From Planctomycetota bacterium (GTDB lineage: Bacteria > Planctomycetota > PUPC01 > DSUN01): a DNA stretch of 64,000 nucleotides. Where the stretch lies: positions 8,579 to 72,578 of the forward strand of contig DAOOIT010000002.1 of NCBI GenBank assembly GCA_035384565.1, written 5' to 3'. The position numbers and the translations under genes were made by a program. The notes under the pieces are model-generated. The model was not told the origin of the DNA and did not search any database. It saw nothing but the letters and a program-made list of their open reading frames with translations. Positions 8,818 to 48,259 of this stretch are shown here, piece by piece (within the stretch, counting starts at the first letter, position 1; each line of letters starts with the position of its first letter).

Positions 8818-10056
8818 TTAGCCACCCGCAAGCTGTTGATAGATCTCGCTCACCGCCTCAGCCTTGCGCTCGAAGGTGAACAGGCCCGCGCGCTCCAGCG
8901 CCCCGGCGGCCAGCTTCTGCCGCTCGGCCTCGTGCGCCCAGAGATGCCCGAGGGCGTCCGCGAACCGAGAGCAGATGGAGGCCCGGCCCTCGACGGGAAC
9001 CTTCACGCCACACTCCGAGGTCACGACGTCGGCGAAGCCGCAGTGGTCGAGGCACACGACCGGCACGCCCTGTGAGAGGGCCTCCATCACCACCGTCGTC
9101 GTGAGGTCCTTGATGCTGGTGAGCGCGAAAACGTGGGAGTTCCCGAGGAGGGCGATCGCCTGCGGCCGCGGCAGGCGCCCGTGCCACGTGCAGCGGGCGT
9201 CCACGTCCAGCCTTCGGGCGATGCGCCGCCACTCCGTGGTGCAGGGCCCCTCGCCCAGGATGTGCAGCTCCCATCCCACCGAAGCCGGCAGGCGCGCGAC
9301 CGCGTGCAGCAGGAGCGGGAGCGCCTTGCCGGGGTCGTGCGCGCCGCTCCACGAGATGCGGAGCGGCTCGCCGTCGAGCCGAATGGAATGGGCCGCCGCG
9401 ATCGGCTCCGGAGGGGCCGTCTCGCAGATGACCTGGCTGTCCTCGCCATAGTGCCTCTGAATCTCGCGCCGAATGCCTTCGGTGGCGGCGATGATTCCGC
9501 CGCGAGCCCTGGGGAAGGCTCTCCTGGGGCGAGGCAGCCACCTCTTGTGCAGCGTGTTGAGCACGTTCCGGCTGGCGAAATGGACGAGTCCTCGCAAACC
9601 CAGCATCGGCAGGAGCCGCCAGGGGGTGTTCTCCAAGCCGCCGATCGGCCCCCAGACGAACGGCACGTCCAGCCTCCACAGGTAGCCGGGCTCTCGGAAG
9701 GTCACCCACGTGAGCTGGTGCACCAAGTCGAAGCCCGGGTCCCGTTGAAGCTGGAGGGCGAGCCGGTAGGCGTCCCTCTGCCAGCGCCGGCAGGTCCAGA
9801 GCAGGGCCGGCTTCCACAGGCGCGAGAGCCGGAGATAGCGCGTCCTGGGCACATAGCAGAACTGAAGATGGTCCCGAAGCGCCGGATCGCGATGCAGTTC
9901 CGCCTCGATGTTGGCGCGGAAGAGATCGCTCGTGAGGACCAGGAGGTCGTGGTGCCTGGAGAGCGCCTTGACCCAACCCCAGCCCACGCCCGGCTCCGAC
10001 CCGCGCGTCGGGTCGCAGGAGTAGGCCGAGACGAGGACTCTGAGACGCCGTTTCAT
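8818..10056 (-). CDS. Glycosyltransferase family 4
   Basis: Real start at MKRRLRVLVSAYSCDP (ATG 10054-10056; the 573-aa track ORF has a spurious Arg/Gly-rich N-extension); ...GFADVVTSECGVKVP... GT-B C-terminal domain. ATGA overlap with the upstream YdjC gene. Confidence 0.8.
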   Translation of the reverse strand: MKRRLRVLVSAYSCDPTRGSEPGVGWGWVKALSRHHDLLVLTSDLFRANIEAELHRDPALRDHLQFCYVPRTRYLRLSRLWKPALLWTCRRWQRDAYRLALQLQRDPGFDLVHQLTWVTFREPGYLWRLDVPFVWGPIGGLENTPWRLLPMLGLRGLVHFASRNVLNTLHKRWLPRPRRAFPRARGGIIAATEGIRREIQRHYGEDSQVICETAPPEPIAAAHSIRLDGEPLRISWSGAHDPGKALPLLLHAVARLPASVGWELHILGEGPCTTEWRRIARRLDVDARCTWHGRLPRPQAIALLGNSHVFALTSIKDLTTTVVMEALSQGVPVVCLDHCGFADVVTSECGVKVPVEGRASICSRFADALGHLWAHEAERQKLAAGALERAGLFTFERKAEAVSEIYQQLAGG

Positions 10057-31241: not shown

Positions 31242-32265
31242 CTCGACGCCGGGCGGCAGACTCGGCGGGTTCTCGGCAGCTTTCAGCACCAGCCAGTCCC
31301 CTTTGGGCCACACTCCGTCCCTGTCGGTGCACCGGCGGAGCCGGAAACCGAGGATACGTGTCCGCCGGTGCCAGTTCCTTCGGCGCCCCGGGCCCGCGGG
31401 GGGAGCCGGGCCAGAACGCCCGCGTGTTGCGCGCCGTGAGGGGGCACCCTCTCTTTGGACGGCAATGCCGCCCCTGGCCGGCCGCACAACCAAGCCGGCG
31501 GGCGACACGCCATGCCCGCCCCGCCGCCGGCCATGGCAGGCCCTTCTGCGGCGGGAGCCGGGGTGGACTGCAACTGCCGTATAGCCCGCATACACTATAG
31601 TGCATGGCGCCGAGCTTGTCAACGGAGCGCGGCCCGGCGTGGGGGAGAAGGCAGAGGGGGCGCGGAGCGCTGTGCTCAGCCCCTCCCTGCGCGTCGGGCC
31701 ACCTGGAGGTGCTTCTGCGAGGCGCCGGCGCGCCTGGTACTGAGGCGGTCGCGATGTGAGCTTCCGCCTTCGCCAGGGGCGCAGACTGCGCCCGGACCCG
31801 ACCCGCGAGCCGCCCCTCCCGAACGTTCCAATACGTTTCCCTCGTCCCTACGCTTTGCTCCTTCCTCTCGTCCCTACGCTCTGCGTGGGGACGCGCCTCT
31901 TGGCCGCTCCGCGGCCTCTTCGCTTCCGCGCGCGTCGGAGTGGGAACCTCCCGCGGGTTGCGAACCCGCGGGAGGTTGTCGGACGCGGGAGCGTCCGGAC
32001 CTCCGCCCCCACGCGGAGCATAGGGGCGAGAGAGAGGAATAGTTCCGGCCGCTGCAAACTGATTCACGGCCGGAGTAGTGGGGATCGCACCAGAGCGGAT
32101 GCCGCATTCCAGAAAGGCCATGAATTGCCAGACGCCGGCGGCAGGTTGGGGGACAGTTCTCGGAAGCCGCGCGCAAGTGATCCGCGTTCCACACCCTCAG
32201 ACATCGCAGCCGCCTTCCTGCCACTCAGCGATCGGCTTTGACAAACCGCTCCAAAGCTGCTACCG
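31242..32265. promoter_or_regulatory. Roughly 1 kb divergent leader/intergenic region upstream of the NusG paralog and the ABC binding-protein gene, holding direct and inverted repeats
   Basis: No convincing ORF (only Arg-rich shadow ORFs); contains direct repeats tcgtccctacgct (31842-31854 and 31868-31880), a 33-bp palindrome at 31935-31967 and the palindrome ggacgcgggagcgtcc at 31971-31986. Confidence 0.4.
31935..31967. repeat. Palindromic element aacctcccgcgggtt-gcg-aacccgcgggaggtt (copy 1; copy 2 at 57766-57799)
   Basis: 15-bp perfect inverted-repeat arms; a near-identical palindrome recurs inside a CDS at 57766-57799. Confidence 0.6.
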
Positions 32266-44637: not shown

Positions 44638-46395
44638 TTACTCCCCCAGTCTGGCGGCTGCCTCAAGGAGCTTGCGGCGGGCCTGGTTGAACTCGGCGGG
44701 GTCGAGGGTGTAGTCGGTGAGGCTGCGGACGACGCTGCGGCAGATGGCATCGGCCTCCTGCGGCCTCTTCGCGGCCAGGAGGCGGAGGAGCTCGTAGTCC
44801 TCAATCCCGTCGCGCATCGCCTCGTAGCGGAGGCTATCGAGCGAGTGGAGCTTGTCCTCGGAGGACGGTGCGCCGCGGAGCTTGGCCACGCCGGGATAGA
44901 CGAGCGTCGCGTCGCCCGGCGGGTCGCCGGGGTTCTGAAACGGGTTTCCCCACGAGGGGTTGAAGCCCCAGTGGAGGTAGCCGGTGGTGCCCGTGGCGAA
45001 GTTGGCCCAGTGGAGGAGCCGCGTCTTGATGAGCGGGTAGTCAATCAGGCGGTTCATGTACTTGCCGCGCGGGCGCTCGCAGGTATAGAACCACACCTCG
45101 TCGCCGGCGGCCTGGCGCTCCTGGAAGAACTTCATCTGGCGGTCGAGCTGGTCAAGGAGCGGCGCCCAGATGTCAAGCGCCCCGACGATGTTGGTCGCGC
45201 GGATGGCTTCGGCGCGGCGGAGCTTCGGGGCGTACTTCTTGACGAGCTGCCCCAGCCGCACATAGGCCGCCGCGTTGCTCCCCACCGGCTCGTCGGCCTG
45301 GAGCTGGATGTAGCTCTCCACCCAGCCCTTCTCCTCAAGATGCTTCTGGAAGGCGGGGAGGAACGCAGCAAGATACTTCTCAAAGGCATCCGTCATCACG
45401 AACACCCGCTTCCTCGCCTCTTCCTTCGAGGCTGGGTCCTCGGGCGCGGGGAATTGGCCTTTGGTGCCATCGGGCTTTGTGAGCGGGAGAGGGATGGCAT
45501 AGAAGTCCTTGGACATCCATTCGTGGCGGCCTGCGAGCGCGGAGCCCATGACCCACGGCAGGCCCGCCTGGCGGAAGGTCTCGACCATACGGTCGAAGTT
45601 AGCGAAGTCAAACGCCACGGCGCCCTTCTCGTCCTGAACCGCGCGGACGGTCTCGTGAAGCGTCACGTGGCCGACGCTCTGGCGGTGGGCAGCCATGCTC
45701 GCGGCGTCGGCCTCGATCAGCTTCCAGTGCTTCTCCGACCACCACGGGGCCTGGTACATGTGGGTGAGGACGACGGGGTAGTACCAGTTGACCACCTTCA
45801 GGCTCATCTGGCGGGGGACGCGCGCGGCATAGACCCTGACACTGAGCGGCACCTTCTGTTCCACTCCGTCCGCCGCAATGGCCACGTGGCCCTCGTAGGT
45901 GCCCGGCGCCGCGTCGTCGGGGACCGCCACGGTGAGCCACACCGCGCCGGTTTGCCCGGCCTTGGCGGAAATGGAGCTGTCCTCGAGCAGCGGGTCGGGC
46001 AGGTCTACCGGCGCCTTCGCCACGAGGACCTGTTCGCCTGTTTCGGCGAGGTGTGGCTCCGTGTTCTTCTTGATGGGCACATAGCCGACGAAGCGGACCC
46101 GCGGCATTGCAAGCTCGGCGCCTGCCGCCGATTTCAGCACTGTCGCCGACGCGGCGAGCCTGGCCACATCGGCCGTTGTGCGGAAGGCGATCTGGCCATT
46201 CTCGACCTCGCTGCGGGCGGCCTCTATGATGACGCTTCTTGGTGGTGCTGCCGGCGGCTCATCCGTGCGAAGCACCTTCACCAGAGGGTCCACGGCCCAC
46301 ACCCGCAGCCCGATCTCGGCAGCGCGCGCGCCGCCCAAGCCGATCGCAAGGACGCACAGCTCTCCCACGGCGGCAGGCAGCCAAGACCCCTTCAT
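44638..46395 (-). CDS. Secreted hypothetical protein, possibly glycoside-hydrolase-like (DUF4091-type, tentative)
   Basis: Signal peptide MKGSWLPAAVGELCVLAIGLGGARA (start about 46395; the track ORF starts at 46488); C-terminal region ...DYPLIKTRLLHWANFATGTTGYLHWGFNPSW...DGIEDYELLRLL. The family call is from memory, not verified. Confidence 0.5.
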   Translation of the reverse strand: MKGSWLPAAVGELCVLAIGLGGARAAEIGLRVWAVDPLVKVLRTDEPPAAPPRSVIIEAARSEVENGQIAFRTTADVARLAASATVLKSAAGAELAMPRVRFVGYVPIKKNTEPHLAETGEQVLVAKAPVDLPDPLLEDSSISAKAGQTGAVWLTVAVPDDAAPGTYEGHVAIAADGVEQKVPLSVRVYAARVPRQMSLKVVNWYYPVVLTHMYQAPWWSEKHWKLIEADAASMAAHRQSVGHVTLHETVRAVQDEKGAVAFDFANFDRMVETFRQAGLPWVMGSALAGRHEWMSKDFYAIPLPLTKPDGTKGQFPAPEDPASKEEARKRVFVMTDAFEKYLAAFLPAFQKHLEEKGWVESYIQLQADEPVGSNAAAYVRLGQLVKKYAPKLRRAEAIRATNIVGALDIWAPLLDQLDRQMKFFQERQAAGDEVWFYTCERPRGKYMNRLIDYPLIKTRLLHWANFATGTTGYLHWGFNPSWGNPFQNPGDPPGDATLVYPGVAKLRGAPSSEDKLHSLDSLRYEAMRDGIEDYELLRLLAAKRPQEADAICRSVVRSLTDYTLDPAEFNQARRKLLEAAARLGE

Positions 46396-46504
46396 CCAGG
46401 CGCTCCTTTCAACACGAGAGCTCTCCCACAGCCGCAGTCTAGGCTGCCTGGCATCCGGAATCAAGCAGCCATAGCCACCTTCCGCCACCGCTCAGGGTGC
46501 AAGC

Positions 46505-46765
46505 CGGGTGTGGGCCGGAATTGTAGGCGGCTGCGGGAGTTCCGAAGGAGCGAAATAGGATAGCCCAGGGCAACGCCCTGGGAACAAGACCGCCCCGCGG
46601 CAGCCCTGACAGGGCGGAATCGAGAGCTTCTATCTCGCCCCTTCAGGGCTGGACTCGTGGATCCCGCTGAACCCAGGGCGTTGCCCTGGGCTATCCCATG
46701 CGAGCCCTTCAGGCTCCAGAGACAATCACCCTGCCTGCAATTCCGGCCCGCACCCGTGCAAGCCG
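46505..46765. repeat. Nested inverted-repeat element in the divergent intergenic region
   Basis: Inner arms ggatagcccagggcaacgccctggg (about 46557-46581) and cccagggcgttgccctgggctatcc (about 46669-46693) are perfect reverse complements about 90 bp apart, and each arm is itself a hairpin (cccagggc-aac-gccctggg). Outer arms ggtgcaagccgggtgtgggccggaattg (about 46505-46532) and caattccggcccgcacccgtgcaagcc (about 46737-46763) give 18 of 19 matches in the core. Confidence 0.5.
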
Positions 46766-46906
46766 CTTGACTCGCCTCGAGGCGGGGCATATCTTCTCCC
46801 TGGGGAGCATGCTGGGTGGACCGCTGCGTGACATGCTGGGGGCCCGTGATCCCGGAGATACGAGATGAAAGAGGCTGCGTGTACGCCCCGCGAAGCGGCG
46901 GCCAGC

Positions 46907-48259
46907 ATGGCCGCCTTCGCCGCAGGGATTGTGGCCGTTGTGGCGGCAGCTTGCCAGGGAGCGGATTGGCCGCAGCTCCAACACGACGCCGCGCGCAGCG
47001 GCTACACCAGCGACGGCCCAAAGCCGCCCTTCCAGCACGCCTGGAACTACGACTTCGCGGCCAAAGAGCACGACAAGATTCACCCGGTCGTGCAGGCCAT
47101 CATCTACAACGGACGCGTGTTCGTCCCGTCCAAGACTGGGCGCGTCTACGCTATTGACGCCACGACTGGCGAAAGGGCGTGGAAATGGGAGAAGGCCGGG
47201 CCGATCCTCAACTCGGTCGGATGCGCCGATGGCCTGGTCATCTTCGGCAGCCTGGACGGCAAGGTCTACGGGCTCAAGGCGGCGGATGGCTCCAAGGCCT
47301 GGGACTTCTATGGCGGCATCCGCGGCTTCTGCACCGCTCCCTGCATCGCCGAGGACAAGGTCTTCATCGGCGCGCGCGACGGCACGTTCTGCTGCCTGGA
47401 CGTGAAGACGGGCAGGCGGCTTTGGGCGACCGACACGGGCGGCTACGTGTGGCACACGGCCGCCTGTGCCGACGGCCGCGTGTTCGTCGCCAACGAGGAG
47501 ATCAGAGTTCTGTGCCTTGACGCCCGCGACGGCAAGATCCTCTGGAAGTCGAAGCGCCTCTGGGGCTTCACCTTCCGCGACGGCAACGCCTTTGTGGATC
47601 AGGGCAAGGTCGTCGTCCGCACCTGGAGCGCGATTGACGACACGGACCTCCGGATCGCGAAGGCGAGCATCCAGGAGGCCACCGACGCGGGGCATTATCT
47701 CAGGATACCCGACGAGCTTCAGGACAAGGCGCTGGAGGCCCTCCGCCGCGAGCCCGAGCTGAGGCAGGAGCTCTTCGTCCTGGACGCAAAGACGGGCGAG
47801 GAACTCTACATGCCCGTCCACAGCGGGCGGGTTTCCACCGTGGACGGGCCGGCATTCTCCGTCTGCCGCGACGGGGCGGGCAACTGGTATCTGCCGATTT
47901 TCGCCGGCCCGATTGCCGCCCCCTGGGGCAGCACGATGGCCTTCGCACGCATGGACCCGAAGACTGGGCGCCTCTCCGAGTTGCTCTGGACGCCGAAGTG
48001 CAAGCCCGCGAGCAACGACGAGGCCCACGCGCTCTCCGTCGGCGGCGATATCCTCTACGTCTCCGAGCAGGAGGAGGGCGAGGCGGGCATCTTCTGCGCC
48101 TTCGACCTCACCAGGCCTTTGAAGCTTGACATCCCGACCCCACAGATGGGCTCGGACATGGAGTACAACGCCCAGCCTCTTGCCAATCCCATCGCCATCG
48201 CGGGGAAGCGCTTCTATCGCATCACCAACCATACCCTTCGCTGCTGGGTGGGGGATTGA
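46907..48259 (+). CDS. Secreted PQQ-like beta-propeller repeat protein (paralog of 43280-44635)
   Basis: Signal peptide MAAFAAGIVAVVAAACQG; blades VFVPSKTGRVYAIDATTGERAW, VIFGSLDGKVYGLKAADGSKAW, VFIGARDGTFCCLDVKTGRRLW, VFVANEEIRVLCLDARDGKILW. Confidence 0.75.
   Translation: MAAFAAGIVAVVAAACQGADWPQLQHDAARSGYTSDGPKPPFQHAWNYDFAAKEHDKIHPVVQAIIYNGRVFVPSKTGRVYAIDATTGERAWKWEKAGPILNSVGCADGLVIFGSLDGKVYGLKAADGSKAWDFYGGIRGFCTAPCIAEDKVFIGARDGTFCCLDVKTGRRLWATDTGGYVWHTAACADGRVFVANEEIRVLCLDARDGKILWKSKRLWGFTFRDGNAFVDQGKVVVRTWSAIDDTDLRIAKASIQEATDAGHYLRIPDELQDKALEALRREPELRQELFVLDAKTGEELYMPVHSGRVSTVDGPAFSVCRDGAGNWYLPIFAGPIAAPWGSTMAFARMDPKTGRLSELLWTPKCKPASNDEAHALSVGGDILYVSEQEEGEAGIFCAFDLTRPLKLDIPTPQMGSDMEYNAQPLANPIAIAGKRFYRITNHTLRCWVGD

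Follow-up and report, generated by a model that had tools for sequence, protein, structure and literature searches.

Evidence for a non-autonomous miniature transposable element with ISKra4-type ends and an Acido-Lenti-1 fold-back interior in a Planctomycetota genome

The DNA analyzed here, referred to below as the window, is a stretch of 64,000 nucleotides from a Planctomycetota bacterium (GenBank assembly GCA_035384565.1, contig DAOOIT010000002.1). This work concerns a discrete element of 250 bp at window positions 46506–46755, located in the spacer between two divergently transcribed genes. The gene to its left (44638–46395, minus strand) encodes a glycoside hydrolase of family GH123 (Pfam GH123_cat, 3.4e-43), and the gene to its right (46865–48259, plus strand) encodes a secreted PQQ-like beta-propeller protein (Pfam PQQ_2, 1.4e-26), for which the JGI gene call uses an alternative start at 46907. 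The preliminary description of the locus had named these neighbors as a DUF4091-like and a PQQ-propeller gene, and both assignments hold, DUF4091 being the former designation of GH123. A scan of positions 46300–46950 revealed a single promoter-like site, a sigma-70-type sequence TTGACT-N17-TATCTT (46767–46795, plus strand; one site found vs. 0.0 expected), which points toward the PQQ-propeller gene and begins 11 bp from the end of the element. The same scan found no promoter-like site inside the element. The open reading frames (ORFs) that overlap it are long spurious frames of a 67% G+C genome; no transposase ORF was found in the 250 bp, and none was present among the 24 largest ORFs of the window that were scanned.

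The element is bounded by terminal inverted repeats of 22 bp and by a target-site duplication of 9 bp. The left repeat GGGTGTGGGCCGGAATTGTAGG (46506–46527, plus strand) and the right repeat (46734–46755, minus strand; reverse complement GGGTGCGGGCCGGAATTGCAGG) are complementary at 20 of 22 positions, and both are kept in all copies described below. The direct repeat GTGCAAGCC flanks them on the left (46497–46505) and on the right (46756–46764). A repeat search placed the outer inverted pair at 46505–46528 and 46733–46756, with 92% complementarity. An outer inverted pair had been recorded in the preliminary description, and that pair is real; however, the string gcaagcc found at both ends belongs to the direct repeat GTGCAAGCC, i.e., to the target-site duplication. 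Within the element, two arms of 25 nt with the sequence GGATAGCCCAGGGCAACGCCCTGGG (46558–46582, plus strand, and 46672–46696, minus strand) are perfect complements with a spacing of 89 nt, and each arm is an 8-bp hairpin in itself. The repeat search extended the arms to 28 nt (46555–46582 and 46672–46699) at 96% complementarity and detected an inner inverted pair at 46601–46623 and 46629–46651 (78%). The nested palindrome noted earlier is therefore real: no such arm pair was expected from shuffled sequences. The predicted fold of a 286-nt stretch had an energy of −181 kcal/mol on the plus strand and −183 kcal/mol on the minus strand, with z-scores of −11.8 and −10.6, respectively, relative to dinucleotide shuffles. 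A chance palindrome was ruled out by the shuffles together with the copies found elsewhere.

The interior of the element matched the Rfam family Acido-Lenti-1 (RF01687) twice in a cmscan search, the covariance analysis that had been proposed for this locus. The left unit (46538–46582, minus strand) scored 38.7 bits and passed the gathering score of 37; it comprises the small hairpin B′ (46539–46551), the tetranucleotide ATAG (46560–46563), and hairpin A′ CCCAGGGCAACGCCCTGGG (46564–46582). The second unit, inverted relative to the first (46672–46716, plus strand), scored 24.7 bits (E = 0.0019) and failed the gathering score. Its hairpin A (46672–46690) is the perfect complement of the left arm and is followed by CTAT (46691–46694) and by the small hairpin B (46702–46716). 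Between the two units, a central pair of small hairpins, C GCCCTGACAGGGC (46603–46615) and C′ GCCCCTTCAGGGC (46637–46649), forms an inverted repeat (46603–46649) around a 21-nt center; in other lineages this feature is likewise found ~22 nt from hairpin A. The interior is not a remnant of a transposase gene but a fold-back of two inverted units with three G+C-rich hairpins each. No intrinsic terminator, sought as a G+C-rich hairpin followed by a U-run, was found within 46506–46755, and the only candidate (46774–46788) lies inside the promoter spacer.

Further copies of the element were sought by a pattern scan of metagenomes with the outer repeat GGTGYGGGCCGGAATTGYAGG, which recovered at least 118 loci (~1 Mb); the sequence GGGTGYGGGCCGGAATTGYAGG is a pattern for scanning genomes for such copies. 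The L-numbers used below denote loci from these related metagenome contigs or from genome scans. A BLAST comparison of 46506–46755 with the at least 118 loci yielded at least 35 full-length matches of 74–99% identity, the edges of which fell at 46506 and 46755, so that similarity between copies begins with the left terminal repeat and stops at 46755/46756. Each full-length copy had a different flank and its own direct repeat at the same boundary. The alignment of 23 distinct 250-bp copies was free of gaps, with a mean column identity of 97%. Altogether, at least 65 independent insertions at other loci were found in the related contigs, most of them with their own duplication of 8–10 bp. Among 64 unique repeat-bounded insertions, 42 had exact direct repeats (9 bp in 31 cases, 10 bp in seven, and 8 bp in four), each of them different, and several more had a direct repeat with one or two mismatches. 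The same ends and 9-bp repeat also enclosed mosaic interiors, in size classes of 161, 231/232, 250, 252, 422, 529, and up to 754 bp. The 754-bp variant (L151:5649–6402) carries tandem CATCATTGGAGCCTTCGGGAGGG repeats in inverted blocks in place of the Acido-Lenti-1 pair. Single contigs of 200–300 kb contained three to four copies each, a density equal to that of one copy in the 64 kb of the window.

Three pairs of loci provided empty sites that were contiguous across the junction and retained a single copy of the duplicated site (L159 vs. L220, 82%; L164 vs. L238, 79%; L179 vs. L161, 80%). In orthologs of the PQQ-propeller gene with 76–83% amino acid identity, the element was absent upstream; the upstream neighbors of these orthologs were rearranged, so for the window copy they show absence without providing a clean empty site. 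The center of the palindrome (46609/46610) is a break point in several assemblies with the identical PQQ protein, and the contigs L123, L124, and L126 start at window position 46610. In a closely related assembly, L122 (9400–9900), the left neighbor is wholly different from exactly 46503–46505 onward, and the left half of the element differs slightly. L122 thus unites the right half of this copy with the flank and left half of a different one, through either chimerism or recombination across copies. Both the breaks at the center and the switch of left neighbor in L122 are the behavior of a repeat.

The copies also bear on the proposal, made in the preliminary description, that the palindrome is a large cruciform site regulating the two divergent genes. 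A locus-specific operator that co-regulates the GH123 and PQQ-propeller genes would be in keeping with the position of the element between them, 11 bp from a predicted −35 box, and with its very strong fold-back potential. However, the same 250 bp stand beside unrelated genes at more than 60 sites, the PQQ orthologs have other upstream neighbors and no such element, and in L122 a different left neighbor begins at the exact boundary of the element. We consider this reading scarcely credible, and a locus-specific operator was rejected on the basis of the copy distribution. By contrast, the suggestion of a MITE (miniature inverted-repeat transposable element), also raised at the outset, is borne out by the terminal inverted repeats and the 9-bp duplication, by dozens of copies elsewhere, by empty sites, and by the transposase-bearing partner described below. 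The check proposed with that suggestion, for further copies and flanking duplications, was positive on both counts in the related metagenome contigs.

The flanks of the insertions revealed a preference for a particular target. Reading outward from the element boundary, 36 of 65 insertions had the trinucleotide TTG at offset 16, i.e., 7 nt beyond the 9-bp duplication, on one side and not on the other. TTG was present at offsets 15–17 in 52 flanks, compared with mostly one to six flanks at other offsets. A TAnnnT motif followed 16–18 nt past the TTGNNN hexamer in 44 of these 52 flanks, compared with a control rate of 0.8%. The modal site of the family is thus located 16 bp upstream of a promoter of the TTGACA-N17-TATAAT type, and the promoter always points away from the element. 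The empty sites hold an intact promoter, for example TTGACA-N17-TATAAT in L238. The orientation of the element relative to the promoter was random (17 vs. 19), and landing in either orientation is explained by the near identity of the two ends. Every flank contained an ORF of at least 80 amino acids, in a genome whose 67% G+C content gives ORFs throughout. The 11-bp spacing of the window copy belongs to a minor class that is shared by a few other copies.

Two observations concern the spacer around the window copy. On its left, a sequence TTGATT-N17-TAGACT (46436–46464, minus strand), 41 bp from the left end of the element and directed toward the GH123 gene, was seen by eye; it has eight of 12 matches and falls below the threshold of the scan. 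On its right, 46767–46821 (plus strand) weakly matches the Rfam family whalefall-1 RNA, at 19.8 bits where the gathering score is 37. The matched stretch, which includes two short hairpins, overlaps with the PQQ gene's predicted promoter and 5′ leader. The whalefall-1 match is probably due to chance.

Comparison of the ends and the target with published mobile elements pointed to the ISKra4 group. Prokaryotic Mutator-like elements have inverted repeats of 18–39 bp with a terminal C and direct repeats of 8–9 bp, and the p-MULT 4 family, to which the ISKra4 group belongs, has Planctomycetes among the phyla in which it occurs (Guérillot et al., 2014; PMC3942029). According to the same study, the TnGBS/ISLre2 family and the ISKra4 group insert 13–17 bp (with a peak at 16) upstream of sigma-A promoters, and members of the ISKra4 group with near-perfect repeats do so in both orientations. 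Table S1 of that paper gives ISKra4-group ends that start with GGGTGC and have 9-bp repeats (ISCasp3, GGGTGCGGCTC…; ISAcce1, GGGTGCATTT…; ISBeg3, GGGTGCAGTC…). The window element has 22-bp ends of the form GGGTG[T/C]GGGCC… with a terminal C, its family has a modal direct repeat of 9 bp, and the family is inserted at a mode of 16 bp upstream of promoters in two orientations. It thus has in common with the ISKra4 group the GGGTGC…GCACCC ends, the 9-bp repeat, the distance of ~16 bp upstream of the −35 box, the use of both orientations, and an occurrence in Planctomycetes; with the TnGBS/ISLre2 family it has the target choice in common. It differs from the ISKra4 group in its length of 250 bp, in the lack of a transposase gene, in carrying the same type of end twice, and in its unrelated interior. 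A DDE transposase of the p-MULT 4 type is absent from the window element; therefore, the element is a derivative or a dependant of the group and not a member insertion sequence. IS1, IS903, and IS1595 had been initial guesses for the family and were abandoned on reading the ISKra4 data. The main text of Guérillot et al. (PMC3942029) contains neither “MITE” nor “miniature,” and its sole use of “nonautonomous” concerns eukaryotic Pack-MULEs.

A candidate partner was identified by tblastn with the ISCasp3 transposase as the query, which matched L136 and L232, two loci recovered by the outer-repeat scan. The ORFs at positions 70–1464 of L136 and 226–1545 of L232 matched the NCBIfam profile NF033572, “ISKra4 family transposase,” with 240.5 and 236.6 bits, respectively (cutoff 205). 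These ORFs stop 28 and 29 bp before an end with the sequence GGGTG[T/C]GGGCCGGAATTGTAGG, which is identical to the 22-bp terminal repeat of the MITE and represents the right inverted repeat (IRR) of the transposase element. In L232, the element spans positions 197–1698 (~1.5 kb), and the opposite end of the ~1.5-kb element, GGGTGCGAGTCTTTTTTGTAGG, matches at only 15 of 22 positions. Since the MITE repeat equals the IRR and the other end does not, the MITE carries the IRR-type end twice. Almost all relatives of the transposase were found on contigs of ~1.5 kb, as expected of a repeated insertion sequence. A full related copy in genomic context was present in L253 (1124–2640); it is flanked by a duplication of 9–10 bp, AGCGAGTTT(G), and a TTGTAA-N17-TAGAAT sequence is located 17 bp from its IRR.

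The 5′ leaders of the ISKra4-type transposase genes contain a long palindrome of their own, ATGCTATCCTC … GAGGATAGCATG (L232:1545–1660, L252:215–300, and L253:1190–1280), the right arm of which covers the ribosome-binding site and the start codon; the palindrome probably controls transposase translation. The leader palindrome and the flank of hairpin A in the MITE have the string GGATAGC in common, which may be a coincidence.

Given the observed anatomy and number of copies, the duplications and empty sites, the statistics of the target, and a transposase element with the same end, we are highly confident that 46506–46755 is a non-autonomous MITE with ISKra4-type ends and promoter-upstream targeting and with an Acido-Lenti-1 fold-back interior, located in a Planctomycetota genome. 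Under the mechanism that we propose, both 22-bp ends would be copies of the IRR of a ~1.5-kb insertion sequence of the ISKra4 group, a prokaryotic Mutator-like element of the DDE type. A transposase supplied in trans would bind the ends and excise or copy the element, and integration with a 9-bp staggered cut would produce the GTGCAAGCC duplication. The element picks DNA just upstream of sigma-70-type promoters, as its parent family does, a choice that the statistics show at the level of the family; the window copy is located in the divergent-gene spacer, 11 bp upstream of the promoter predicted for the PQQ-propeller gene. Both trans-mobilization by a transposase of the L136/L232 type and any effect on the neighboring promoter are inferred.

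Several results weigh against this interpretation. The promoter of the window copy, at 11 bp, is outside the 13–17-bp mode of the family. The copy counts rest on metagenome contigs, the assignment of which to one organism was inferred from sequence similarity. The transposase elements (L136, L232, L252, and L253) originated from other metagenome samples, and a screen of the window and of the ~1 Mb of MITE-bearing contigs revealed no copy with a transposase; therefore, co-residence in this genome and current activity are putative. In the MITE-bearing loci, pairing of terminal repeats out to 8 kb with a check for duplications found nothing longer than 754 bp, and an all-against-all BLAST for repeated segments of 600–4000 bp returned orthologous regions only. 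In addition, L232 lacks a clean duplication, and the interior of the MITE shares only ~25 nt with the insertion sequence.

With the MITE interpretation, what was an unexplained palindrome becomes a mobile element with known ends, a duplication, a target rule, and a likely transposase, which will aid annotation of Planctomycetota genomes. The MITE family is new and its type is known, and insertion upstream of promoters had been described before for the parent insertion sequences; the new features are the high-copy non-autonomous form, to which the targeting by Mutator-like bacterial transposases is hereby extended, and the orphan Acido-Lenti-1 motif as its core. A literature search by sequence string returned no relevant match. 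The family resembles the bacterial MITEs Correia, ERIC, RUP, BOX/SPRITE, and MITEAba12, the interiors of which are structured or functional (reviewed in PMC10969869): it is likewise small and intergenic, has terminal inverted repeats, duplications, and a strong secondary structure, and is probably mobilized in trans. Unlike those elements, it has a target at a fixed distance upstream of promoters, presumably inherited from a Mutator-like transposase, and an interior that varies less than its terminal repeats and that it shares with elements from other phyla. The dozens of natural insertions each mark a candidate promoter in an uncultured lineage. Elements of this kind also break assemblies at their center and can yield chimeric joins.

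The nature of the interior requires separate consideration. The original description of Acido-Lenti-1 drew on 89 sequences of Acidobacteria and Lentisphaerae and assigned no function, and the published seed already contains multi-copy occurrences, with inverted pairs as well as tandem arrays (Weinberg et al., 2010; PMC2864571). In our data, the Rfam matches to Acido-Lenti-1 in the window and at six other loci were all inside copies of the MITE, the other copies scoring 42–46 bits. A genome pattern scan with CCCAGGGYNNNRCCCTGGGCTAT recovered at least 120 loci, which among the matches listed belonged to Planctomycetota, Acidobacteriota, Verrucomicrobiota, Bacteroidota, Lentisphaerae, Chlamydiae, and others. 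At least a dozen of them, like the window, carry the motif as a minus/plus inverted pair with a spacing of 41–168 nt. The conserved unit is built around the 8-bp hairpin A and the CTAT that follows it, with one 5-bp hairpin ~22 nt upstream and another ~8 nt downstream, and this architecture is that of the window unit and of 135 copies in many phyla. The copies adjoin ordinary housekeeping genes; by a crude gene call, they are mostly downstream of genes and seldom between divergent genes. The window element shares with Acido-Lenti-1 RNA the 8-bp hairpin, the conserved GCUA(U) linker, and the 5-bp hairpin, and its left unit passes the gathering score. It differs in being located inside a transposon with terminal repeats and a duplication, in having a third hairpin ~22 nt upstream, and in having an inverted partner. 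The distribution differs as well, with Planctomycetota and, by pattern scan, Bacteroidota, Verrucomicrobiota, and others added, and here both its status as an RNA and its strand are putative.

The preliminary description had also suggested a structured non-coding RNA, and in its strongest form this would be a structured small-RNA gene of the Acido-Lenti-1 type, present as two convergent or divergent copies, with the surrounding repeats incidental. The part of the suggestion that stands is the match at the gathering score, to which the higher scores of the other copies can be added. The small hairpins are also preserved to an extent that is consistent with a structured product: among the 135 copies, hairpin C′ was perfect in 85 and the 5-bp hairpin B in 99, compared with 10 and five, respectively, in shuffled sequences, with many different stem sequences. 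Within the MITE family, divergence from the consensus affected 0.5% of sites in hairpin A and its inverted copy, compared with 3.6% elsewhere and 3.8% in the terminal repeats, i.e., hairpin A is ~8 times less variable than the rest (p = 9e-9). This low variation indicates that the module is constrained, either in the master-copy lineage or in each copy. At one locus, L185 (4100–4370), ISKra4-type ends are lacking around an Acido-Lenti-1 inverted pair (38.7 and 38.0 bits), and a promoter-like site, TTGACA-N17-TAGATT, is located ~25 nt upstream of the pair and points into it; this was the one case seen in which the module could be its own transcription unit, and it fits a small-RNA gene.

However, other results do not agree with an RNA gene. 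The window element contains no promoter-like site of its own and, between two divergent genes, stands upstream of the −35 box of the only predicted promoter. The MITE is inserted in both orientations relative to promoters, and the terminal repeats, duplications, and empty sites indicate that the spreading unit is DNA. In the small hairpins, A·C mismatches outnumbered G·U mismatches by 36 to 9 when read in the Rfam orientation, although many were at the loop-closing pair and the signal is weak; A·C pairs also occur in the main stem of many seed sequences, which is unexpected for an RNA on that strand. Among singletons between co-directional genes, 25 were antisense to the Rfam orientation and 11 were not, according to the crude gene call. 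On balance, we judge it quite unlikely that the locus is a small-RNA gene. In practical terms, matches to the orphan Rfam family Acido-Lenti-1 can be transposon interiors, and annotation of the motif as a small RNA near genes, as in recent Tannerella work, should be read with caution.

Another alternative is that the interior is a doublet of repetitive extragenic palindromic (REP) sequences, of the type called REPIN, spread by a REP-associated tyrosine transposase (RAYT) acting on the hairpins, the outer repeats being secondary. In its layout the element is similar to a REPIN: it has two inverted hairpins, each with a conserved tetranucleotide, ATAG, on the 5′ side of the stem on one strand, and singletons, inverted pairs, and tandem arrays are dispersed in intergenic DNA beside ordinary genes, as REP sequences are. 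RAYT-like genes are present in MITE-bearing contigs; however, the genes in L171, L195, and L185 each have palindromes of their own on either side (GTAGGGCGTGCATACATGCACGC in L171), which differ from Acido-Lenti-1 hairpins. In the at least 120 genome loci with hairpin A, tblastn with RayT of E. coli as the query gave no convincing RAYT (best match L102, E = 0.14). The 9-bp duplication and the terminal repeats of the window element, which set it apart from REP/REPIN–RAYT systems, are hallmarks of DDE and not of Y1/HUH transposition, and no RAYT association was found for it. A REPIN-like origin is accordingly very unlikely.

The RAYT-like Y1 genes form an observation of their own. They are located in contigs of the Planctomycetota type, at L171:9437–9943 (minus strand; flanks 9280–9390 and 9955–10045), L195:1457–1765, and L185:7967–8293, and the L171 gene product shares 43% identity with RayT of E. 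coli (E = 8e-38). Every gene is accompanied by its own REP family (doublets of GTAGGGCGTGCATACATGCACGC, arrays of GCGCGGGGCACGGAGGCCCCGCCCACAG, and arrays of GGAGTGCGGCAACGCAGTTGCCGCTTTGG in L171, L195, and L185, respectively). These loci look like classical REP–RAYT systems outside Proteobacteria.

Returning to the MITE interpretation, the Acido-Lenti-1 module is probably a functional passenger or a structural module, since it turns up in many phyla and varies less than any other part of the MITE. The point of real interest is a hairpin module that is conserved across phyla and more tightly than the ends of the transposon that carries it. A bolder reading would be that Acido-Lenti-1 is not an RNA gene but a conserved three-hairpin DNA/RNA module that crosses phyla as the functional core of promoter-targeting miniature transposons, of the ISKra4 type and others, and that is under stronger constraint than their ends through a role at the insertion site. 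Such a role would be, for example, that of a bidirectional insulator or roadblock just upstream of promoters, or of a conserved binding site for a host factor. The low variability of the module within the MITE, the exact hairpin in many phyla, and an element from a second phylum argue for this proposal; against it, only one of 126 clusters outside this lineage had ISKra4-type ends and a duplication. We put the proposal forward as a speculative one and regard it as unlikely. The single case indicates that the link between Acido-Lenti-1 and ISKra4-type ends is real but not general.

The element from the second phylum was found in L006 (2224–2508; 285 bp), a metagenome-assembled genome of Syntrophobacteraceae. 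It has ISKra4-like ends (GGGCGCATTTG…CAATGCGCCC), a 9-bp duplication TAGGCGAAC, an Acido-Lenti-1 inverted pair, and a similar center, and a related sequence is present at L108:270–620. This suggests that a second phylum has the same core moving with ISKra4-like ends. When L028, L060, and L070 were inspected manually, additional outer inverted repeats were seen, without a clear duplication.

Two features elsewhere in the window were also noted. The left half (800–30700) contains a large polysaccharide-synthesis cluster with several glycosyltransferases of families GT1, GT2, and GT4, a Wzy-like ligase, a Wzt ABC ATPase, a WecA-like transferase, and an epimerase similar to GDP-mannose dehydratase. 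A non-coding sequence of ~85 nt, GAGGCGGTCGCGATGTGAGCT…CGCCAGGGGCGCAGACTGCGCC…GACCCGCGAGCC, is located at 31742–31823, in a 1.7-kb stretch of the window without a convincing gene, and had no Rfam match at E ≤ 1. It is conserved with 87–91% identity in several contigs; it also occurs at L244:683–766 and L164:297–370, and in L155 and L208 it is split by a MITE.

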